DNA of 64,000 nt from a virus (IMGVR_UViG_3300044711_000026:4999-68998); one strand, 5' to 3'. Shown: positions 15,487 to 30,662, counted from the stretch's first letter. Translations and numbers: made by a program. The notes: generated from the sequence alone by a model not told the origin.

Positions 15487-17525
15487 CAGTTTCTCCCGCT
15501 CGGAGCGTAGCGATATCGCACCTTGCCTATACGCCAGAAGCTGCCTTGGTCGCTTGAGGTAACCGTGATCGACATCTGACGGCCACGGAACCGTACCGAG
15601 ATGAACTCCGTTGTCGACGTGACCACATAGGGACCGTAGCCTGTCGGGGTGTCACCGGGATAGTTGACCACGTTGAACGTCATCTGGATCTGGGCCGAAC
15701 CGGAGGCTCCATACAGCGAAAATTTGAAATCCGGTATGATGACATCGACGAACGCAAAATCCTCGCCTTCTCCAATGACAAAGTAGCCCGTCGTGAATGA
15801 TGCCGTGATCGGCTGCCCGTCCGCGTCGTTCGTGGTCTCCTGCTGGTAAATGATGCCGCTTGGCGTGGCCGCGATCGGAGGTCCCAGGATGGTCTGGTCC
15901 ATCCATGCCGAGCGCGACAACGTCCCGTAGTCCCACGGCTTGGTAGGTTCAGTGACGTTCATCTTGACGTAGGAATCGCACTCCCCACTGACCGAAGCTG
16001 ATGACGGGAATAACCAGCCCACCTCGTTATAGGGCGTGTTTGGCATGGCCCTGACGTTCTGCAGGAACGACGTATTGCTGTTCTGGAACACGAAGTCCCA
16101 TACCGTGCAGGGTATGACGCTGACCCCGTTCGAATCGTAGGCATAGAAGTTGCTCGCTCCCATCCAGTAGACTGAGCCCCTGAACTGCTGCGCGCCATGT
16201 GATGAGATCAAGCCCGCCCCGGCTCCGATCTTGTTGAAGCCGAACACCAGCGGAAAGCCTTTGTAGGTTGCGGCCCACAAGTCGAGATCGGTCCAGAACA
16301 GGTTCTGGTTTGACACCGCCATGCCACCGCGGATTTCAGATCCGATCGGAATGCGGAATGAGCCAGCCTGATTGGTCGTCGAGGTCTTGAACTGGGTATA
16401 GTCCCCCTGATCGGACCAGCGCACCAGCATTGGGTCCTGAGACTGTCCAATGTTGGCGTTCGTGGTCGATCCCCATGCGAACAGGATTTGCAGGGAATTG
16501 GAGATGAAGATGCCGCCATTGAACGGCGGTGCAGTCGGCACGATGGATGCCGTGTTGAACCCGCCAGTCGGATCGAACTGATAGATTGCCCCCCCAGACG
16601 GATTGGCGAGCGCGATCTCTCCCCAATTATCGCTGGTCCAATCGGTTGCGGTAATGGGGGTGCCCGTCTGGAACGATCCCGCAACGCCGGTCCCATATCC
16701 TCCGGCCCCATAGCCGCCCGTTCCATATCCTGCCCCGCTCGCCGAAGGACCAAGGTTGATGAAATACTGAAAGCTGGTGCTTCCATTGTTCATGAACCCC
16801 GTAGCCAGGCCAGTCGCCAGGGAATTGACGTTGATCGTGAAGTTGTTCGCATCGACAAAGATCGCCGGATAGATGCCGAAAATCGTCACCCCTGACAGTG
16901 ACGTTGTGGCCTGAAACGCCACGTTGATGAATCCGGCGCTTGAAAGGCCGTGTGCTGTAAAATTGACGCTGACGATATTGGACGTCGTCGCGGTCTGGAA
17001 CAGAGGAAGCGATCCGGCATTGTTGACCGTGGCACCAGCCGCTGTTGCAATATTGATCTTGTAGGACGTTCCTCCCAATGTCGTGACTGTGTAAAGACCG
17101 GATATCACCGCCGTCCCGATCGAAACCGGCGTATTGATCATCACGGAATCGAACGAACTCAGGTTGCTGATGTTCGGATCGGTGATCGTGACCGTGGTCG
17201 AATTTGCGATCGTGGAAAAATTCGGAGGGGTGCTGGAGTCTACCTCTTGGGGCGTGATCGAGATCAAAGACCCCGACGTGATCATGTCGAGGCTTCCGGT
17301 CGTTCCCGACAGGAGATGATGGTTACCGTTCAAGTCCTGCCATGCATGGAGATCGCGCGGCGTGCCGGCCACATTGAAGGCGTAGAATTTGGACCATCCG
17401 CCATACTTCTGGACGAGGCCTTCGCGAAAGCGAATCAACTGGCTCGACGAAATGCCAGCCTCATTCAACGTTGGTGTTTTTTCAACGTTAATCCCGGGAA
17501 TGAGTCTGACGCTTCCATGTGGCAT
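15486..17525 (-). CDS. tail hub/nozzle protein (tail tubular B, P22 gp10-like)
   Basis: 679 aa; PGIN..., IRFREGLVQKYGGW, VRWSDQGDY...TNQAGS, VFGFNKIGAGAGLIS, RFRGRQMSI. Confidence 0.8.
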   Translation of the reverse strand: MPHGSVRLIPGINVEKTPTLNEAGISSSQLIRFREGLVQKYGGWSKFYAFNVAGTPRDLHAWQDLNGNHHLLSGTTGSLDMITSGSLISITPQEVDSSTPPNFSTIANSTTVTITDPNISNLSSFDSVMINTPVSIGTAVISGLYTVTTLGGTSYKINIATAAGATVNNAGSLPLFQTATTSNIVSVNFTAHGLSSAGFINVAFQATTSLSGVTIFGIYPAIFVDANNFTINVNSLATGLATGFMNNGSTSFQYFINLGPSASGAGYGTGGYGAGGYGTGVAGSFQTGTPITATDWTSDNWGEIALANPSGGAIYQFDPTGGFNTASIVPTAPPFNGGIFISNSLQILFAWGSTTNANIGQSQDPMLVRWSDQGDYTQFKTSTTNQAGSFRIPIGSEIRGGMAVSNQNLFWTDLDLWAATYKGFPLVFGFNKIGAGAGLISSHGAQQFRGSVYWMGASNFYAYDSNGVSVIPCTVWDFVFQNSNTSFLQNVRAMPNTPYNEVGWLFPSSASVSGECDSYVKMNVTEPTKPWDYGTLSRSAWMDQTILGPPIAATPSGIIYQQETTNDADGQPITASFTTGYFVIGEGEDFAFVDVIIPDFKFSLYGASGSAQIQMTFNVVNYPGDTPTGYGPYVVTSTTEFISVRFRGRQMSITVTSSDQGSFWRIGKVRYRYAPSGRN

Positions 17526-18490
17526 CAGGTCTTCACCAACGGAAGAAAGTCAACGATAGCCGGCGGCATGTTCTGGCTAGTTCCGCTGCCTGTGCCATTG
17601 ACGCCAACCGTAATTCCGGTCACGGCAGAATTTGAATTTGTGCCACCTACCGAAGCCGCGTTAGATCCAGCAATCAGACTCGCAACTGAGCTTGGATTAT
17701 TCGTCGGGATGAAATGCACGTGCCCCGGGTCCGTCACCGTTGCCGTATGGTTATGCGATTGCATCAACTGTGATCCACCAGACGCGCCAAGCGTGCTGCC
17801 GTTGATGCCTGACAGTGACGTCACGCGGCCAGTCGCCCCAGTATCAACCGGAAGTCTGACGCGCGATAATTCGTCGGGTACGCCAAAGGTTGTAATGCCA
17901 TTCCCGCCATATGTGGACCCAAGAAGCTGCGCCAAGGCGGGATATACTGATGCGGTGTAGATTGCACCGTTTTTGATCAAGTATGGAGCGACCGTGCACG
18001 CCGTCATCCAAGGCGGTAGCGTCGTGGTGTTGGTGTGAAGGTCAAGGGCTGATCCCGGCGTCGGCATGTTGACGTAGTCCATGTCCGTTCCGTCGTAGAA
18101 CACATGGATTTTCTGACCGGGAGGCGCTCCTATCCTGTTTCCGACACCAACAGATGGTGCGAGCTGCACGAACGTTGTCCCGGTGCACTGGTTGTGCACG
18201 ATGTAATAGCCCGGCAACGTGAATTGGATCACCGCGCTTCCGGTCTGCGCGCCCGTGAACTTGATCAAGGAGTTGACGCTTTGGGAGAGCGAACCCGGCC
18301 ATATGCCCGTTGTCGCCGGAACGCTGAGCAGCAACGTTGTCGTAACGGAGAGCGTAATAGTGGTGACGCCGCCGAACAATGCGTCAACTGTCTGAAAGTT
18401 TGGGTTGAGCGCAGAGGTTCCCCAGGCTCCGCTTAAATCTCCTGTGTTGGGTACTATTAGTGTTTTCTGTGCAGTTACAGGCTCAACCAT
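17525..18490 (-). CDS. tail fibre/baseplate protein with phage tail-collar domain
   Basis: YLIKNGAIYTASVYPALAQLLGSTYGGNGITTFGVPD; SHNH...DPGHVH; NMPPAIVDFLPLVKT; start at MVEPV. Confidence 0.8.
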   Translation of the reverse strand: MVEPVTAQKTLIVPNTGDLSGAWGTSALNPNFQTVDALFGGVTTITLSVTTTLLLSVPATTGIWPGSLSQSVNSLIKFTGAQTGSAVIQFTLPGYYIVHNQCTGTTFVQLAPSVGVGNRIGAPPGQKIHVFYDGTDMDYVNMPTPGSALDLHTNTTTLPPWMTACTVAPYLIKNGAIYTASVYPALAQLLGSTYGGNGITTFGVPDELSRVRLPVDTGATGRVTSLSGINGSTLGASGGSQLMQSHNHTATVTDPGHVHFIPTNNPSSVASLIAGSNAASVGGTNSNSAVTGITVGVNGTGSGTSQNMPPAIVDFLPLVKT

Positions 18491-18546
18491 TGACTGAAAC
18501 CCCCAACCTATGCTGTAAACGGTTTGTTGGAACGGAGAAACAGCAT

Positions 18547-19224
18547 ATGAAGCTTGAATTGCAAGGCAAGAGATTCGGCCGCTTGACGGTAGTTGCCAAG
18601 ATGCCGCCTGACCCACGCTACAGAAACGCGATGTGGAACTGTCGTTGTGACTGCGGGAACTATACCATAGCCGCTGCCACAAATATCGGCAAAAGCACGC
18701 TTAGCTGCGGATGCCTTGCCAAGGAAACAGCAGCCAAGCAGATTAGAAAAAATAGCGCCACCATCAAACATGGGATGGCCGGAACTCCAGAATACCAAGC
18801 TTGGACCAAACTGAAACTTCGCTGCTACGATGCCGATAACCCGAAATATTACGCCTATGGGGCCCGTGGTATCTCTGTCTGCGACCGCTGGCGCAATAGC
18901 TTTGAGGATTTCTTCGCAGACATGGGGCCAAGACCGTCGAAAATTCATTCGATCAATCGCGTGGATAATGACGGGAATTATGAGCCTTCTAACTGCCGAT
19001 GGGACTTGCCGGGGGTTCAAAATAGAAATGCTAGGTTCAATCGCATTGTCACGATAGACGGTATCAGCCTGTGTGTAGCCGAATGGTGCGACACGCTTGG
19101 AATCCCGAGAATGAGACCCTATGACATGACGAGAGCAACAGGACGCAAGCATGATGGGCCGGCGCGGTTTGCATCCATTGACGACGCTCTTGAGCATGTT
19201 TACCGGAAAAAACATGGCCCCTAA
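18547..19224 (+). CDS. free-standing HNH homing endonuclease (antisense to the late operon)
   Basis: GKRFGRLTVV, WNCRCDCG, SCGC, YGARGISVCDRW, SIxRxDNDGNYEPSNCRW. Confidence 0.9.
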   Translation: MKLELQGKRFGRLTVVAKMPPDPRYRNAMWNCRCDCGNYTIAAATNIGKSTLSCGCLAKETAAKQIRKNSATIKHGMAGTPEYQAWTKLKLRCYDADNPKYYAYGARGISVCDRWRNSFEDFFADMGPRPSKIHSINRVDNDGNYEPSNCRWDLPGVQNRNARFNRIVTIDGISLCVAEWCDTLGIPRMRPYDMTRATGRKHDGPARFASIDDALEHVYRKKHGP

Positions 19225-23361: not shown

Positions 23362-23705
23362 TTCGGAGTGCCGCCATACGTGTCGGCGGGACTAGACGAC
23401 CCGGCGCAGCTCGCCGAGTTATGAGCGGTCGATAGCGGAGACCGATTGGCACCAACCGCACCACCCGACTTGCGGCCTGGCCGATCCAGACGCGCCTTCA
23501 CGCCGCCACCGGCCATCAGGCCGATGACCTTGCCGCCGGTCGCACGCTTCTTCTTGACCTTACCGCCCTTCTTGTGGCCGGTCTCCGCGCCATCTTCGTC
23601 GTCATCGGCCTCGCGCAGCACTTCCGGATTCCCGGAAGCCACCATACCGATCCGGCCGCCCTTCTTGCGCTCGGTCTTAACTTGCATACCGCCGTGCTTA
23701 GCCAT
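23358..23705 (-). CDS. small basic KKGG-repeat protein
   Basis: AGGAGG SD; KHGG, KKGG x2, RATGG, RKSGG motifs. Confidence 0.75.
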   Translation of the reverse strand: MAKHGGMQVKTERKKGGRIGMVASGNPEVLREADDDEDGAETGHKKGGKVKKKRATGGKVIGLMAGGGVKARLDRPGRKSGGAVGANRSPLSTAHNSASCAGSSSPADTYGGTPK

Positions 23706-23718
23706 CTAGGCCTCCTGA

Positions 23719-24963
23719 TTAAATCTGAGCCGTGCCGAGGATCGGCGCCGTATTGAGCGGGGTAGCAGCCGCCGCGCTGTAGACCGGCATTGTCACCGCC
23801 ATGAACAGGCGCCGCGCGCCATCTGTCGGAACCGCAAACGCTGTGGATGCATTGAGCGTGCCACGAACGTCAGCCGTCGAGGTCGATGCAGACGTGCCGA
23901 GCGCCTTGGTCCAGCCAGCATTGTTGATGACCGAGGTTCCGCCGAACCGATAGTCAGCGTATTCCCACTTGTCCGACCGCAGGTTGAACCCGAAGATATC
24001 CGAGATTCCAACCACGACGTTCGCGGGGGTTACAGTGGTCGCGGCCGTCACAACCTTGATGGATGATACGTACTTGAAGGCCTTCTTGCCGTTGACCGTG
24101 TTGGTTCCGTTCGCCGTGATCAGTTCAGACATGGCGTTGAAGTACATGTCATAACCAGCGACAACAAGGGCCGTGGTTCCTGACCCGATCGACGCCGCCG
24201 TGACAGACAGGGCTCGGGCCGAGCCCTCCAGAGGATTGAACGGCAGGGCAAAGCCAGCCACGCGATACGGATCAGAAGCGTTCGCTGAAGCCGCTGCGGG
24301 GCCGAACTGAGTGGCTGGCGGCAGGAACTGGCTGTACAGGTTGCCCTGTCCAATCGGCGCATGGCTGAGCGCGGTAGCCGCCACAGGGCTGATCGTGATC
24401 AGCGCACTGTTCGCATTGGTCGACAGCGATTGGACCTGAGCGAACAGGGCCACGTTGGTTGCACCTGCCGAGCCCGCGCCTCCAATCACGACCCACTGGC
24501 CAACCGAAAACAGCGTGTTATCATTCACGATCACGGTTGAAGAGTTCGCCGCAGTCGTTCCGGTCGCAAACCCGAAATCAACAGCCGAAACCGTCGTGGC
24601 CACCGACGTACCAACGGGGATGATCGGAATGCCAGGGGTCCACACCTGAACGCCTGCAGCCGTGCCAAGAACCGCAGTGGTCAGAGTCAGCGCAACGCCT
24701 GCAGTCGTTGACGGCGCCTGAGCAGCCGCCACCGTTGTCGTGCTGTTCGACGAAGGAATGACATCAGTCAGCACGATGTAAGGGTTGTTGAACCACCCTT
24801 TTATCGCACCAGGCGCCATACCATCCTTGTTCGCAGGCGAGAACGACGGATTGGCAACAACGCCGCCCTGATAGTCGATCGAGGGGCCGTCAAGCGGCTC
24901 GACCCGCCCATCCATCAAGGACCCGACGTTCGCGACAGGCCCGCGGAATAGTGATTCAGCCAT
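23719..24963 (-). CDS. Thr/Ala-rich capsid-associated (decoration/fibre) protein
   Basis: 414 aa from MAESLFRGP; VNGKKAFKYVSSI; follows the capsid gene. Confidence 0.7.
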   Translation of the reverse strand: MAESLFRGPVANVGSLMDGRVEPLDGPSIDYQGGVVANPSFSPANKDGMAPGAIKGWFNNPYIVLTDVIPSSNSTTTVAAAQAPSTTAGVALTLTTAVLGTAAGVQVWTPGIPIIPVGTSVATTVSAVDFGFATGTTAANSSTVIVNDNTLFSVGQWVVIGGAGSAGATNVALFAQVQSLSTNANSALITISPVAATALSHAPIGQGNLYSQFLPPATQFGPAAASANASDPYRVAGFALPFNPLEGSARALSVTAASIGSGTTALVVAGYDMYFNAMSELITANGTNTVNGKKAFKYVSSIKVVTAATTVTPANVVVGISDIFGFNLRSDKWEYADYRFGGTSVINNAGWTKALGTSASTSTADVRGTLNASTAFAVPTDGARRLFMAVTMPVYSAAAATPLNTAPILGTAQI

Positions 24964-26095
24964 ATGAGCCCTCAAAGTTTGGTGTGGCTACCAGAAGCCA
25001 GTCGCGCTTCGGATCGCGGAACGGAATGACCTGTGGCTGATACCTCCGGAGATAGGTAGCAGCCTTTGTCAGGACTTCGGGATCATCGCAGGCATATCCG
25101 ATTGCAAGGTTGCAGCCAGAGCAGAGCAGACCGCGCACCGCGCCAGTGGTGTGGTTGTGGTCAACCGAGAGCATGCGGATGACGCCGTTCTCAACCCGCG
25201 TCTCTGGCTTCTCGCAGATCGCACAAACGCCCTTCTGGTCTACTAACATGCGCTGATATTCGACGATATCGATGCCGTACTTCTTGCGGAAGTCGCGATC
25301 TCTGAGTTGGTCCTTGTTCGCTGCGTAATTTGCCTTGGCGTAAGCGCGCTTTCCTTCAACGCCATCGGCCACCGGGTGACCGTCAGATGCCCACCGATAG
25401 TTACCAGGACCGATCGGCCGGCTGGAATCGATCGCTGCGATTGCATACCGACGTTCTGGAACGTCAGTCACCTCGGCCGCGAACTCTTCAAACGAGGCCC
25501 AGCCAATGATAATTCCCTGCCCAACAAGATTAGCCCAAGCCGCACGTTGGCGTTTTTCGATTCGAAGAGCTTCAAACACGGCCTCGGTCTTAATTGCATC
25601 AGTCGCGCCTGAAAGACGTGAATAAGCGTCGGTCACCACGATTGACGCATCTTCAGGGCTGTCAAAATTCATTCCAAGAGACACTTGTTTTGTTTTCCAA
25701 GTAATCTTGGCTTGCCACTTGTTGTGTGGCGCGACGCTTACACCCTGAAACCCGCTCGTGTTATTTTTGTTTTTACCACGGGCATGCTGCAATTCAGATC
25801 GTTCTACTTCCTTTAGATTTTCAAACCTCAAGTTATCAAAGTTCCCATCAACTGGGCGAACATCTTTCGACGAAAAATCTCCCTTGACATAGAACCATGC
25901 TAGCCGATGGGCCATGAACTTTTCACCGTCTACGGCAATGTAACGGCCGCCAGTAGGGCGATGCACCACGCCAGCTACAGATCCAACTTTTACGCGATTT
26001 GAAGTGCTTACTTTCCAAGTGAAAACGCCAACCGCTGGATCAAAATCCAGCAATTCAAGAAGGCGCTTGTGGGTCAGCTTGGTCACGCGTGTCAT
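24956..26095 (-). CDS. composite homing endonuclease: degenerate HNH + AP2-like + endonuclease VII domain
   Basis: LLDFDPAVGVFTW...MAHRLAWFY (HNH core decayed); NTSGFQGVS..KWQAKIT; KYGI..EY..ML..QKGVCAICE...LSVDHNHTTGAVRGLLCSGCNLAIG. Confidence 0.85.
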   Translation of the reverse strand: MTRVTKLTHKRLLELLDFDPAVGVFTWKVSTSNRVKVGSVAGVVHRPTGGRYIAVDGEKFMAHRLAWFYVKGDFSSKDVRPVDGNFDNLRFENLKEVERSELQHARGKNKNNTSGFQGVSVAPHNKWQAKITWKTKQVSLGMNFDSPEDASIVVTDAYSRLSGATDAIKTEAVFEALRIEKRQRAAWANLVGQGIIIGWASFEEFAAEVTDVPERRYAIAAIDSSRPIGPGNYRWASDGHPVADGVEGKRAYAKANYAANKDQLRDRDFRKKYGIDIVEYQRMLVDQKGVCAICEKPETRVENGVIRMLSVDHNHTTGAVRGLLCSGCNLAIGYACDDPEVLTKAATYLRRYQPQVIPFRDPKRDWLLVATPNFEGSYG

Positions 26096-26166
26096 CTTTC
26101 CAATCCTCCAGTTTCAACATCATACTTATCGCATGATGCCCGGAGGCATGTCAATCCAAAAGAATA

Positions 26167-27081
26167 TCAAGCAGTAGGGAACTCGCCCCATGCCGCTCTT
26201 GGATCGTTTATACCAAAGCTATACCTTTCATAACTTTTGACCAAAAGATTATCGGTCACATTATCAACCCACATATCGCTCTCATACGGAATGCGCAGCA
26301 TGTGGATGAGCCCCTCGATGTTCGTGGTGAGGAACCACGCGAAATTCGAGGTGAGGAAGTCGAGAACGATGAAGCCCTCGGGGAGGCCGCCGGAGAGCGA
26401 CAGGATGGCGTTGACGTCGTTGTCCGCGGTGCCGGGGCGCAGCTCGGTCTTGGTGAGGCGGATCGCGACCGCTTCAAGGTTGGCCGGCACGACGAGCTTG
26501 CGTGCGCGGGCCAAGATCCTCATGCCGCGTTCGTTGACGAACTGGGCGCGAACGTTGGTCATGTTCGCGAGCAGCGTCGATTCATTCAGAGACTTCGGCG
26601 TGCTGGACGTGTTGGCCCATGTTCCACCGTCATAGGGATGTGAGGTGGAGAAGAATGCGACGCCGTCGCCGACCTGGCTCGAGTTGTAGGTCGTGCCGAG
26701 ATTGAAGATGTTGGCGGCCTGAATTTCCTTGAATTGCGCGAACGCTTCCTGGAGCTTCAGGTTGGTCGGGTTGAACTGGGCCTTGTACAGGTTGTCGTCG
26801 ATTGCCTTGCGCGTGATCGCGTAGCCAAGAGCCACTTCCACATGGATAAATGCCCAAGTGAAGCGCTCGCCAGCGTTGTTGTCGAACTGGGTTGCCGCGC
26901 CCTCGTCCTTGAGGTATGGCAGCGCCACGAACGCCATCTGAGTAGAGCGCTCGACCGCCATTGAGGACTTGTGGGTCTTGAAGACCTTGTCCCACTGACG
27001 GGGTATCATGTCGTAGCTGCCGCGGACATCGAAGAGGCCCGGAAGCAATTCCGACCGAACGTTTGCAAGTGAAATCGGCAC
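26167..27081 (-). CDS. major capsid protein
   Basis: 304 aa, AGGAGG SD + GTG; ELLPGL, EVALGYAITRKAIDDNLY, LVVPANLE, SYERYSFG..DPRAAWG. Confidence 0.9.
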   Translation of the reverse strand: MPISLANVRSELLPGLFDVRGSYDMIPRQWDKVFKTHKSSMAVERSTQMAFVALPYLKDEGAATQFDNNAGERFTWAFIHVEVALGYAITRKAIDDNLYKAQFNPTNLKLQEAFAQFKEIQAANIFNLGTTYNSSQVGDGVAFFSTSHPYDGGTWANTSSTPKSLNESTLLANMTNVRAQFVNERGMRILARARKLVVPANLEAVAIRLTKTELRPGTADNDVNAILSLSGGLPEGFIVLDFLTSNFAWFLTTNIEGLIHMLRIPYESDMWVDNVTDNLLVKSYERYSFGINDPRAAWGEFPTA

Positions 27082-27137
27082 CTATGGCCTCCTGTGTCAA
27101 CTCGGCGCCGTGGAGCGCCGCATTAGAATTGCGACGC

Positions 27138-27737
27138 TTAAACCGTACCTGTCGCACCCGCCTGGTAGAGGGTGTTGTTCATCTTCACGATGACCCAGTT
27201 GTAGTTGGTGGTCGGGTCAGAACCGTTGCCAATGCCCGGGTAGAGATACATGACCTTGAACGCGAGCGTGTTCGTGCTGGCGAGCGTCGATTGGTCGATC
27301 GTGTAAGTGGAGAATCCGCCGCCGACCGTGGTGCCGCCGGCTCCGGTGGAGAAACTGGCATTGTTTCCAACCGCGGTCGCGGGGACGGCCGTCAGGAGTG
27401 CCGCAACCTTGAACAAGGCATTGGGCGCATCAATGACGTATGCCGTTGAGTCGCCACCTGCAGCCGCTGCTGGGTACCATGGGAGCCAGCCCGGGACGCC
27501 GCCGACCGGCGTATACTGGCAGCCTTGGAAAATCCCCACCATCGTCGTCGCCGTGGTGCTAACCATCGGCTTGATGTAGTTGCCACCCGAACCAACGGAG
27601 GCGATGACCGGATCGCCGAAGAAAATGGCGGTGTGATAGGTCGACTGAATGGCGTACTTGGAAAGCTGGTAGTCGGGAGCACCCCCCGGCAGGTAGCCGA
27701 AGTGCGCGAAGCCGAACTGCGCTTGGGTGTTAGCCAT
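27138..27737 (-). CDS. capsid cement/spike-type structural protein
   Basis: MANTQAQFGF...Y.IQSTYHTAIFFGDPV...GIFQGCQY...VIDAPNALF; directly upstream of the capsid gene. Confidence 0.7.
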   Translation of the reverse strand: MANTQAQFGFAHFGYLPGGAPDYQLSKYAIQSTYHTAIFFGDPVIASVGSGGNYIKPMVSTTATTMVGIFQGCQYTPVGGVPGWLPWYPAAAAGGDSTAYVIDAPNALFKVAALLTAVPATAVGNNASFSTGAGGTTVGGGFSTYTIDQSTLASTNTLAFKVMYLYPGIGNGSDPTTNYNWVIVKMNNTLYQAGATGTV

Positions 27738-27796
27738 GACAAGCCCTTGACTTTTAAGGCCTCGTCCAGCGCTTGCCGGGGTGCGATTGCCAGAAA

Positions 27797-27881
27797 GTCA
27801 CAACGGCTTGTTGCGACAGAATGCCAAGGGACGATCTATCGTCTGCCTTTGGCTGCTCGACCTCCTGCCACAGGCGGGAGG
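27797..27881 (-). ncRNA. structured 5' leader (three consecutive hairpins) of the capsid transcript
   Basis: stems at 27861-27881, 27823-27853 and 27797-27817 (GUCGCAAC/GUUGUGAC, G-U pair only on the minus strand). Confidence 0.5.
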
Positions 27882-28114: not shown

Positions 28115-28930
28115 CTACAGCCCCAGCGCCGCAACGATCTTGGGTACGAAAAGATCAGCGCCGGCATCGTGTCCAGCCCCCGTCAAATGGGTAAGGTCAA
28201 CCTGTCGATAGACAAGCCCGGTCAACGAATCCAAATTCGCCCCTTGAAATACATTGATCCCGTTCGGAGCAGCGTCCTGCGCAGCCTGCACAGCCGTGCT
28301 GACTGCGCCATTGATGAGCGTGCATTTCGAGATCATCCACGGGACGCCATCCCCAGGTGTGGCAATGACCTGAGCGAGCGAGGCTGTGTAAGCAGCCTGC
28401 GAGGTGTTGAGGGGGTTGTTGTCGGTTTCGCCCTGTATCCAGATGTAGAGGCTGGCCGCAAGCCCTCTGGATGCGAGGATTTGCGGAACGAGTGCCAGAC
28501 GTCTGTTCAGGACCCCGCCTGTCGCCCATCGCGCTACTGGCGTCCCGCCGTAGCAGATCGGAACGAGAATAACGCGCTGACAATAGCCGCCATTGATCAG
28601 CTTGTCGGCAATCCGCCCGGCTATATTGCCGCAAGTCGCTGACGATCGGATCGTGCAGCCTAGCAGCGGGTCAACGGCCTTGTACGTTCCGCCATCGAAA
28701 ATATTGAAGTTGTCAACCTTGTCCGCGTTGGTCGGGGTATAGGCCACACTGCCAGAATTCGCGCCGTTCGATTGGCCCACGGTAACGAGAACGAGGGTCT
28801 TTTCGCCCGGGTTAAGCTGCGGCGATCTGGTTTCCTTTCCAACTGGGTAGCGGTTGCTGCCCCACGGGATCTGGTCAAGGTCCTCGGGGACGATAAACGG
28901 ATAGCCCGCCGAGGCCACTCCCCTCATCAT
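28115..28930 (-). CDS. SGNH carbohydrate esterase (sialate O-acetylesterase/CE6-like)
   Basis: VGQSNG, WIQGETDN, DLTHLTGAG; ATGA-coupled start. Confidence 0.85.
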   Translation of the reverse strand: MMRGVASAGYPFIVPEDLDQIPWGSNRYPVGKETRSPQLNPGEKTLVLVTVGQSNGANSGSVAYTPTNADKVDNFNIFDGGTYKAVDPLLGCTIRSSATCGNIAGRIADKLINGGYCQRVILVPICYGGTPVARWATGGVLNRRLALVPQILASRGLAASLYIWIQGETDNNPLNTSQAAYTASLAQVIATPGDGVPWMISKCTLINGAVSTAVQAAQDAAPNGINVFQGANLDSLTGLVYRQVDLTHLTGAGHDAGADLFVPKIVAALGL

Positions 28931-29895
28931 CCCCAGAACTCCAACTGCAAGCCCGAGCGATGCACGGCGGCTCCAGCGTTGTTCCCATACCATGTCTGTG
29001 TATCCGGCGTGACTCCAGCACCTCTTTCCTGCCAGATTATTTGATGCCAGCCAAGGCCCGGATAGCCCTTGTAGAAGCTTTGGCACGTCACAATAGGTGA
29101 GTTAGTGCACTGCACAAACGTACTGCGCCCGCTGTTGACTGTGGTGCTGTCTATGCCGATTCCTGCGGCGACCGTGCGCGGTGTGGTGGTGGAGTTCTGC
29201 ACGACGTTGAACGCTTCTGCCGTCATCAGCACGCTTGGAAGACCGAACAGCGTTTCTACTTGGTTGGCAGCCCCAACATTGGCCGAATTGACTTGACGGA
29301 AGCTAGACGCTGAATGATCCCAGTTTGTTCCTGCCTCTTGGACCAAGCCACAGCGTTGCGCGATCTGCCAGGCATTGAACACGAGCCGCTTCAGTGCCGT
29401 ATCGCCAGCCTGGCCGTCAGCTATTGGCCGGAATGATCCAATATAGGTCGCGCAATTCGCAGCCACGGTCATGGTGCTGCCACTCGCAGACCCGTACCGG
29501 ATCGTAATTGCGTTGGCGTTGGTCCAGATGCCGTTGACGAGGTGGATCTCGGTAGACCCAACACCAGTTCCTCGAAGAATATTTGAACCTGGATTGGCGC
29601 CAGCAGTCCAATCAGGACCGGTGCCGACACGAGCGGCTCCAGACCCATCCAGAACAGCAAACAGATCGAAGTTCTTTCCAGCCTGATGATAACCGACATG
29701 ACCGGAGTTGTTATCGAGTGCCAAGGCAAGGTCAGACGCAACCGTGTAGAGCCGAAACCTCGAGCCGTCATGGATCGGCAACCTGCAGCCATCGACAGGC
29801 GTCGCGTAAATGTTGGTCACGCCAGAGACGTCGGCGGTCGTATTCGCAACACCCGGCGTCAACGTGATCCGAACTTGCGGGGCGACCTTTGTCAT
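28927..29895 (-). CDS. tail-fibre/spike-like protein
   Basis: RITLTPGV..TADVSG.TNIYATP..G..LPIHDG, NFDLFAV, TYIGSFR, FNAW, YPGLGWH..W.E; coupled to flanking genes. Confidence 0.6.
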   Translation of the reverse strand: MTKVAPQVRITLTPGVANTTADVSGVTNIYATPVDGCRLPIHDGSRFRLYTVASDLALALDNNSGHVGYHQAGKNFDLFAVLDGSGAARVGTGPDWTAGANPGSNILRGTGVGSTEIHLVNGIWTNANAITIRYGSASGSTMTVAANCATYIGSFRPIADGQAGDTALKRLVFNAWQIAQRCGLVQEAGTNWDHSASSFRQVNSANVGAANQVETLFGLPSVLMTAEAFNVVQNSTTTPRTVAAGIGIDSTTVNSGRSTFVQCTNSPIVTCQSFYKGYPGLGWHQIIWQERGAGVTPDTQTWYGNNAGAAVHRSGLQLEFWG

Positions 29896-30662
29896 CACGC
29901 CGCCGGCAGCATGGCGATTTGCGCTGCGTCCATAGGCACGACGGGTGCCATCTGCTGTTGCTGGGCCTGAGCCTCGACCACGTCGAGATACCTCCCGCAA
30001 TAGTCGAACGGGCCGACATGGCTCATCTTATGCCCGATGTTGGCCCACACCGATCCGCCGCACTGACCCCACCGGATACAGAACGAGAGGTCTTCAGAGA
30101 TCAACCCCCGATCCGGAACGTCCATCTTTTCGAACAGCCGGAGCAGGCGATTCGTCCCCGCCTGACGCAGGGTTTCGCCGGCCGGGTGCAGGGTCAAACG
30201 GGTGTCAATCAGTTCGGGAAACTTCTCTACCATCTTGGTGATAGCGTCACGGCGGATCAGAGTGCAGCCGAAGCCAACGCCTTCTACGCGCATGAAATCG
30301 CCTCGGCGCTCGGTCAGTGGCGTGCCGCTGCCTGAGCCGGCCCAGGACAGTGGCATCTTGCGCTGAGGGTAGACGGTGCCAACAACGGCCTCGTTGAACA
30401 GCACCATGTCGCTCACGAGTTCCGGGGGAAAGCCCATGTCTGCATCGATGAACAGGATGTGGCTGCTGTTGGGCATCGTGTCATACCAAATCGTCGTAAA
30501 CATTGACCGCAGCTCGGCGATATCAGGGAACGACAAAGTCGTAATTCCTCCACCGATCCCCTTCTGCATAAGGTGCTGACGCAAGGCGTGGGTCGTAAGG
30601 AACGTGGTTGCCGTCACGACTTGCCCGAAGGCCGGAACGCAGATCAAAATATCAGTAGCCAT
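29895..30662 (-). CDS. glycosyltransferase, GT-A fold (phage GT2-like)
   Basis: ILICVPA, HILFIDADMGF (DxD), GVGFGCTLIRR, SEDLSFC..W...GG..W, SHVG. Confidence 0.85.
   Translation of the reverse strand: MATDILICVPAFGQVVTATTFLTTHALRQHLMQKGIGGGITTLSFPDIAELRSMFTTIWYDTMPNSSHILFIDADMGFPPELVSDMVLFNEAVVGTVYPQRKMPLSWAGSGSGTPLTERRGDFMRVEGVGFGCTLIRRDAITKMVEKFPELIDTRLTLHPAGETLRQAGTNRLLRLFEKMDVPDRGLISEDLSFCIRWGQCGGSVWANIGHKMSHVGPFDYCGRYLDVVEAQAQQQQMAPVVPMDAAQIAMLPAA

Follow-up and report, generated by a model that had tools for sequence, protein, structure and literature searches.

This analysis concerns the 3' end of a major capsid protein gene, and the free-standing homing-endonuclease-type gene that follows it, in a soil phage known from a metagenomic contig (IMGVR_UViG_3300044711_000026:4999-68998). 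The window is the whole stretch of 64,000 nucleotides that was analysed; it makes up most of a 69-kb IMG/VR virus record, and its phage is hereafter referred to as WIN. The locus is encoded throughout on the minus strand. The capsid gene (26167..27081) begins with GTG and encodes a 304 aa protein matching the Pfam family PF10124 Mu-like_gpT (24.7 bits, cut-off 20.1) and the phrog_371 major head protein (E = 1e-8). Homologues of 304 aa on other contigs match PF25209 Phage_capsid_4, a tblastn search hit annotated major capsid proteins in phage records, and the gene product is a predicted HK97-type major capsid protein of the Phage_capsid_4 / Mu gpT-like kind. An earlier note on this DNA, made from the sequence alone, had placed an HNH/EndoVII gene just downstream, which agrees with a 379 aa open reading frame (24956..26095) that follows a 71 nt spacer (26096..26166) and has a weak HNH_3 and a strong Endonuclease_7 match. 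The next gene (23719..24963) is conserved and encodes 414 aa from an ATG at 24963; 8 nt at its start are shared with the end of the nuclease gene, stop included (ATGGCTGA), and a profile search found no family match for its product.

Codon composition of the capsid gene tail

The earlier note had drawn attention to an abrupt change in codon usage at the end of the capsid gene, and its counts were reproduced exactly on recounting: four of the 40 codons before position 26280 (codons 229-268) end in A or T, and of the last 36 (codons 269-304) 33 are degenerate, with A or T in third position in 22. The rare codons it had listed are likewise present, with AGG and AGA as the two Arg codons of the tail and ATA as its sole Ile codon. 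Thirteen of the 14 Arg codons in the capsid body are CGN, and across the long open reading frames of the window AGA, AGG and ATA account for 5.7%, 11% and 6.9% of their respective codon families. Maximum-likelihood analysis places a change point at capsid codon 269, where the G+C content at third codon positions (GC3) drops from 0.81 to 0.33 (log-likelihood ratio 15.6; 0 of 1,000 permutations as high, p <= 0.001). This delimits a tail rich in A or T at third positions (AT3), comprising codons 269-304 and the stop codon (26167..26277). The encoded protein stays capsid-like, as had been claimed, and the peptide YESDMWVDN[IV]TDNLLVK.YERYSFG.NDPR is kept across relatives despite the codon change.

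The capsid gene has the highest GC3 among the genes, and its AT3 patch is abrupt. Windows of 36 codons that are equally AT3-rich make up 3.3% of all those in the long open reading frames, which makes the patch uncommon without being the only one of its kind. Another such patch (GC3 0.28) lies near codon 112 of the gene at 28927-30000 (-), which has a GC3 of 0.60. At the opposite end of the capsid gene (codons 1-22), WIN and most relatives have low GC3 and high synonymous divergence in the first 12-22 codons, with or without a nuclease gene; this looks like a generic translation-start effect and lies outside the finding described here.

The compositional shift continues beyond the capsid gene. 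In a 150-nt profile, low GC (0.41-0.51) extends from about 26285 down to about 25550, covering the tail, the spacer and about 170-200 codons at the start of the nuclease gene. A second GC3 change point is located at nuclease codon 198 (p = 0.006); the EndoVII region is genome-like, with a GC3 of 0.65-0.85. From the composition profile and the GC3 change points, the whole low-GC block occupies 25504..26277 and takes in the capsid tail, the spacer and that part of the nuclease gene which encodes the DNA-binding half. Over the loci compared, mean GC3 of the tail (0.55) is close to that of the nuclease gene (0.58, p = 0.22), versus 0.78 for the capsid body (p = 3e-6). Within the tail, the AT3 excess is diffuse over codons ~278-304 (~25 codons). 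A compact patch distinguishing nuclease-bearing from nuclease-free tails, which would be a candidate recognition site, was considered and rejected on account of this diffuseness.

The nuclease protein

Residues 1-163 of the nuclease match the phrog_99 HNH endonucleases (E = 2e-42), with a Pfam HNH_3 (PF13392) score of 21.9 bits that falls under the curated cut-off of 24.8. The HNH_3 motif reads VRPVDGN versus VDH.DGN in the family, so that Pro81 occupies the position of the catalytic His; this His is absent in 119 of 120 fused homologues, and the DH pair is retained in five free HNH_3 neighbours. Residues 111-172 form an AP2 domain (PF00847), for which the family profile matches TEM1 AP2 (E = 4.6e-6) and ERF1 with a fold match probability of 1.0; no Pfam AP2 hit was reported for the single nuclease sequence. 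Together, the pseudo-HNH_3 and AP2 regions make up a low-GC3 N-terminal half (aa 1-170; 25586..26095). The C-terminal EndoVII catalytic domain, beta-beta-alpha-metal in type with a 'DHHRN' motif (aa 279-354; 25034..25261), matches PF02945 with 75 bits and carries the arrangement C291-x2-C294 ... D312-H313-N-H315 ... R321 ... C325-x2-C328-N329, in which D312, H313, H315, R321, N329 and the four zinc-binding Cys are invariant in all 120 homologues. Its profile matches Hpy99I (E = 1.8e-12) and T4 EndoVII (E = 6.7e-8), with fold matches at probability 1.0. An AlphaFold model of the protein (mean pLDDT 91) returned I-HmuI (probability 0.99), TEM1 AP2, T4 EndoVII and Hpy99I as top folds, giving an overall architecture in which an I-HmuI-like N-terminal region is followed by AP2 and then by a helical linker that leads to the EndoVII nuclease at the C-terminus.

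With the HNH_3 motif dead, the EndoVII domain is predicted to be the active nuclease, and the loss of the HNH_3 His together with an EndoVII centre invariant across the family indicates that the nuclease domain has been replaced. The nuclease looks functional because the EndoVII catalytic residues are invariant in every homologue compared. The N-terminal 170 aa resemble I-HmuI-type HNH_3/AP2 endonucleases (phrog_99) both in profile and in best fold match, and members of that type predicted to be active are found at the same capsid junction in four related loci (L001, L002, L007 and L016); unlike these, WIN has its catalytic His replaced by Pro81. The family to which the nuclease belongs comprises at least 378 proteins at E<=1e-10, the source contigs of which come mainly from soil and freshwater samples.

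The capsid junction among relatives

A search of IMG/VR with the capsid protein yielded 80 loci, and ~85 related loci entered the comparison (designated here with the prefix L). In the nuclease-free relatives L003-L005, L008-L011 and L018 the downstream gene starts 4-30 nt past the capsid stop, and the identical junction is occupied by a nuclease gene in WIN, L001, L002, L006, L007, L012 and L016. Presence of the nuclease is thus sporadic at one intergenic site among close relatives, with the flanking genes intact. Searching with the single nuclease protein returned only L012, and an alignment-based search was required for further loci; with the fused-nuclease alignment, full-length or EndoVII-only homologues were found right after the capsid gene in L083, L085-L089, L091, L092, L096 and L097. 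The same capsid-nuclease context was seen in all four metagenome contexts sampled from a large protein collection, and the capsids of these sampled contexts and of the ten alignment-found loci are 31-90% identical. Every insert at the capsid junction that was submitted to a profile search proved to be an HNH_3/AP2 or EndoVII gene. The boundary of the capsid gene with its downstream neighbour is a hot spot, at which different genomes hold different HNH_3/AP2 or EndoVII nucleases. Several loci have more HNH_3 or EndoVII genes at a distance of a few genes from the capsid gene (L002:8411-8851, L016:794-1264, L023:1330-1710, L141:5426-6070 and L142:364-900), and nuclease genes are scattered through the head module of this phage group.

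T4 EndoVII acts as a resolvase and is required for packaging, some homologues of the WIN nuclease are named 'Recombination endonuclease VII' in their source records, and the gene sits in the head gene cluster. It might accordingly serve the head module in a housekeeping role, as an EndoVII-type resolvase or as a packaging nuclease, next to a tail that owes its composition to unrelated mosaicism. We find this hardly credible: in close relatives the position is empty or taken by an unrelated HNH_3 nuclease, the protein has predicted sequence-specific DNA-binding modules (AP2 and I-HmuI-like), and the tail effect follows the presence of the gene. The EndoVII motif of the WIN nuclease is moreover C-terminal, and this position, compared here as such, is associated with the homing/restriction clade and not with the resolvase clade in the F-CphI study (PMC6083498).

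The tie between the odd tail and the endonuclease, which the earlier note had postulated, holds across the loci. Tail-minus-body GC3 averages -0.21 in the 20 loci with an HNH_3 or EndoVII gene and +0.03 in the 62 without (Mann-Whitney p = 2e-9, shared ancestry uncorrected), and two additional nuclease-bearing loci, L141 and L142, show the same GC3 behaviour. The note had held that an AT3-rich tail of the same kind in element-free relatives would speak against such a tie; 58 of the 62 nuclease-free loci have no GC3 drop, and only four do. It had also proposed a spike in synonymous divergence over the tail, and the ratio of tail to body synonymous difference is indeed 1.49 among nuclease-bearing pairs, against 1.00 among nuclease-free pairs. 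In most nuclease-bearing genes the change point falls within codons 257-271 or within codons 285-291. L003 alone of the nuclease-free genes tested has a change point in the tail, and L033 has one upstream at codon 227. A generic gene-end effect was rejected as the cause of the tail, there being no 3' GC3 drop in nuclease-free genes.

Comparison with the closest relative, L002, which has a near-identical capsid body and downstream gene and a different nuclease, reveals the extent of the exchanged block. Synonymous difference between WIN and L002 is 0.07-0.25 over capsid codons 31-269 and 0.07-0.08 over the first 60 codons of the downstream gene (97% identical in the two phages), versus 0.74 in the capsid tail, and the two nucleases are 31% identical. 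Between near-identical flanks, the divergent block extends from capsid codons 267-275 as far as the nuclease gene reaches, with the downstream gene as its right border. Its upstream edge is marked by a cluster of recombination breakpoints at codons 267-275 (26257..26281), identified by maximum chi-square in the pairs WIN-L002, WIN-L001, L001-L002, WIN-L083, WIN-L085 and WIN-L006 (p 0.0005-0.02); no break at these codons was detected by the same method in nuclease-free control pairs. WIN, L001 and L002 have 98% identical capsid proteins, three different nucleases and three mutually saturated tails.

The WIN tail is closest to that of L012, the synonymous difference of 0.38 being the smallest in any WIN comparison. 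The two also have the start of the spacer in common, and the nuclease N-half (aa 1-170) is 77% identical (70-87%) to that of L012, among the most similar found, versus 27-63% for L083. Since tail, spacer start and nuclease N-half are all L012-like, the exchanged unit consists of the tail, the spacer and the DNA-binding half of the nuclease, in a mosaic genome whose capsid body and downstream gene are L002-like. The WIN nuclease is itself a recombinant, with an L012-like N-half joined to an L083-like linker and EndoVII domain: residues 180-285 are closest to L083, and the crossover lies at residues ~165-200. A leftover original capsid tail downstream of the nuclease gene, which would have pointed to insertion within the capsid gene and a replacement end supplied by the cassette, was looked for and rejected (best local alignment 33, shuffled maximum 35, no DNA matches). 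A 73-nt segment at 24934-25006, covering the nuclease 3' end (...RDWLLVATPNFEGSYG) and the start of the downstream gene, is 85% identical to L001:2457-2529 and makes up a conserved junction on the right-hand side; outside it, the nucleases of WIN and L001 are 37% and the downstream genes 40% identical.

These boundaries bear on two ways in which the tail could have diverged in place. According to the first, selection following the arrival of the nuclease altered synonymous positions of the resident tail so as to evade the phage's own enzyme. Self-protection through target polymorphisms has been proposed for MobE (PMC2790892), the amino acids of the tail are strictly kept while the codons differ, and such recoding could account for part of the divergence, atop hitch-hiking. 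As an account of the tail it is unlikely: the AT3 excess is not site-sized, the shift is directed toward the composition of the nuclease gene, for which escape has no need, and it continues unbroken into the spacer and the nuclease N-half. WIN and L012 also have the tail and the nuclease N-half in common, and a WIN-L002 tail difference of 0.74, with flanks at ~0.2, is too much for accumulation in place since the two diverged. According to the second, repeated breaks near the nuclease gene were followed by error-prone, AT-biased repair or relaxed selection, with no foreign allele involved. The raised synonymous diversity specific to nuclease-bearing tails would fit this process, as would the frequent recombination in the tail shown by L003, in which two nuclease-linked alleles form a patchwork. 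We consider it very unlikely, given that the boundaries at codons 267-275 are sharp and recurrent, that tail and nuclease N-half are common to WIN and L012 as one block, and that the start of the downstream gene, equally near the nuclease, is unaffected.

The spacer offers a further possible reason for an AT-rich tail. It contains TTGACA at 26149-26154, a -35-like box (TTGAC), followed by a hairpin that joins CCUCC (26142-26146) to the nuclease Shine-Dalgarno sequence GGAGGA (26104-26109) in its 3' arm, with a folding energy of -30.8 kcal/mol for the spacer RNA (z = -4.4). Hairpins pairing with the Shine-Dalgarno sequence through different arm sequences are present in L012, L139, L006, L142 and L088; the spacers of the first three, at L012:4916-4985, L139:131-203 and L006:4916-5017, likewise have a TTGAC box ahead of the hairpin. 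On read-through capsid mRNA, such a hairpin would probably mask the ribosome-binding site and keep nuclease expression low, preventing translation of the nuclease from the abundant capsid message, in likeness to the ribosome-binding-site sequestration described at T4 I-TevI, T4 segB and Aeh1 mobE (PMC2988022). The tail could then be AT-rich because the inserted gene requires a promoter, an unstructured leader or some other signal there, an idea to which the TTGACA and the hairpin near the cassette, and the tight regulation of T4 homing endonucleases (PMC2988022), lend some weight. It is nevertheless highly improbable: both signals sit in the spacer, outside the coding tail; by the criteria of a consensus scan, neither tail nor spacer has a promoter on the minus strand, despite the spacer TTGACA; nuclease-free relatives start the next gene 4-30 nt past the capsid stop with no GC3 drop; and the saturated divergence between tails is left unexplained.

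Probable homing at the capsid 3' end

Taken together, we regard it as probable that the capsid tail flanks the cassette of a free-standing homing endonuclease and was inherited with it through gene conversion. In WIN the putative foreign block is made up of capsid codons ~269-304, the spacer and, from the nuclease gene, the DNA-binding half. The diffuse AT3 excess, the nuclease-like composition and the continuity into spacer and nuclease gene argue for a foreign allele that was dragged in, not for point-wise escape recoding. Of the proposal in the earlier note that the element carries a recoded, cleavage-resistant capsid end, the link to the endonuclease is supported and the targeted synonymous recoding of a compact site is not. 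On the model of T4 SegF, SegG and MobE, the nuclease would cut the conserved 3' part of the capsid gene in genomes devoid of it, the break would be repaired from a co-infecting nuclease-bearing genome, and the stretch between the cut and the insertion point would be copied along. A cut site in this segment of element-free relatives and a tail resistant to cleavage would both be compatible with the way breakpoints gather where the tail begins. The tail would share the long promiscuous history of the cassette and would therefore never adapt to the strong codon bias of the capsid gene. By the same analogy, its many synonymous differences probably also spare the carrier from its own enzyme.

A number of observations weigh against this reading. 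L003 is the clearest exception, being nuclease-free with an AT3-rich tail; codons ~276-285 of its capsid gene (L003:4001-4915) are of the L002/L083 type and codons 288-299 of the WIN type, a patchwork that fits, and does not prove, partial conversion through recombination within the tail or loss of a nuclease whose flank stayed in place. L033, L054 and L074 are also nuclease-free and have moderate GC3 drops, weaker than that of L003, and the nuclease-bearing L023 and L038 have no clear drop. The association test is uncorrected for shared ancestry, and L083-L097 were found through the nuclease itself. Among nine loci, a Mantel test gives no overall correlation between how far the tails and how far the nuclease N-domains have diverged (rho 0.08, p = 0.30), synonymous sites having reached saturation in all but the closest pairs; similar tails occur only in the two closest nuclease pairs, and L083 and L002 share a similar tail with unrelated nucleases. 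The cut site, the self-immunity and the activity of the nuclease are all predictions from sequence and analogy. Finally, the contigs are metagenomic and chimeric assembly is not fully excluded. Within window positions 23700-27800, identical fragments were, however, found in X2, a sequencing run from a rhizosphere metagenome of a different study and year, including a 640-nt contig, identical over 25663-26302, that spans the tail breakpoint. Recovery of this contig in a second study weighs against chimeric assembly, and the identical fragments place the same phage and cassette in at least two samples. Related capsid contigs in two other runs (X3 and X4) cover the tail less and are not usable as evidence. 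No contig joining the capsid gene directly to the downstream gene was found in the four public runs (X1-X4, of which X1 probably represents the source sample), a result that is uninformative on inheritance.

The process involved in the proposed cassette inheritance is no new principle, and the locus is an unusually clear and widespread natural example of a known one. Intronless homing, co-conversion and protective target polymorphism are textbook matter for phage T4. In intronless homing the cut sites are distant from the insertion site and the flanks are co-converted (PMC2988022), the authors of the MobE study propose that target polymorphisms protect the carrier genome from that enzyme (PMC2790892), and nuclease genes have been located at boundaries of genetic exchange between phages (PMC10448857). 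The WIN locus is most readily likened to T4 SegF/gene 56 and SegG/gene 32, in which a free-standing endonuclease gene lies between conserved genes, a neighbouring essential gene is cut, the intervening sequence is co-converted and the carrier allele is divergent (PMC2988022); on sequence grounds a comparable arrangement may be envisaged for WIN. SegF and SegG, however, are GIY-YIG enzymes with demonstrated cleavage and inheritance, whereas the WIN nuclease is of the EndoVII type and its evidence is comparative, from ~85 metagenomic loci. Like MobE, which acts on nrdB in T4, the WIN nuclease is modular, with a DNA-binding part and a beta-beta-alpha-metal nuclease, and the MobE target falls in a block of conserved amino acids, as the putative WIN target in the capsid tail would (PMC2790892). 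The HNH centre of MobE is active and its target is a nucleotide-metabolism gene, whereas in WIN the HNH centre is dead, an EndoVII domain is appended and the neighbour is a capsid gene.

In position, the closest parallel is T4 segD, a free-standing endonuclease gene directly after the major capsid gene, between gene 23 and gene 24 (Table 1 in PMC2988022). Unlike the WIN gene, segD encodes a GIY-YIG enzyme, for which that source gives the activity as not determined and the target as unknown, and the available part of it describes no recoded capsid end. F-CphI of cyanophage S-PM2 shares the 'DHHRN' EndoVII motif and is an established homing endonuclease that targets a neighbouring conserved gene (PMC6083498). 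Set beside it by description, it differs from the WIN nuclease in being small (catalytic region at residues 71-129) and in that its carrier is protected by the psbA intron in a 'collaborative homing' arrangement and not by a divergent allele; the passages of that paper that were searched mention no pseudo-HNH_3/AP2 fusion and no link to a capsid gene.

The window contains a second nuclease-type gene (18460-19224, +), matching a phrog_374 HNH endonuclease (E = 1e-65) with no Pfam hit. It lies antisense within the tail operon, beside the 5' end of a tail-collar-domain gene (17525-18682, -), the lowest GC3 window of which (0.31) starts at codon 40. The pair may represent a second instance, within this genome, of a gene whose end is recoded where it adjoins a nuclease gene.

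An extension of the cassette reading, which we put forward only tentatively, is that the capsid 3' end is a contested site at which several nuclease lineages displace one another, each with a matched specificity module and an uncut tail allele, so that rival enzymes may cut the tail allele of another cassette. It is suggested by the three nucleases and three saturated tails on the 98% identical capsids of WIN, L001 and L002, and by the crossover in the WIN nuclease, which divides the tail-linked DNA-binding half from the EndoVII half. If this is correct, the specificity half would always change hands together with its cognate 'immune' target, in the manner of a toxin-immunity pair.

The analysis documents a large unnamed nuclease family with a dead HNH centre and predicted EndoVII cutting, the genes of which follow one capsid family in every context examined. 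It makes a compositional oddity within an essential, highly expressed gene readable as the footprint of a homing endonuclease, and yields a prediction from sequence only, namely a cut at or just downstream of capsid codons 267-275. The roughly 20 independent cassettes provide a natural series in which to study how long co-conversion tracts are, how nucleases turn over and what non-optimal codons cost a capsid gene. If the capsid 3' end is indeed contested, an arms race of selfish nucleases, and not the codon preference of the phage, would write the synonymous sequence of an essential structural gene.

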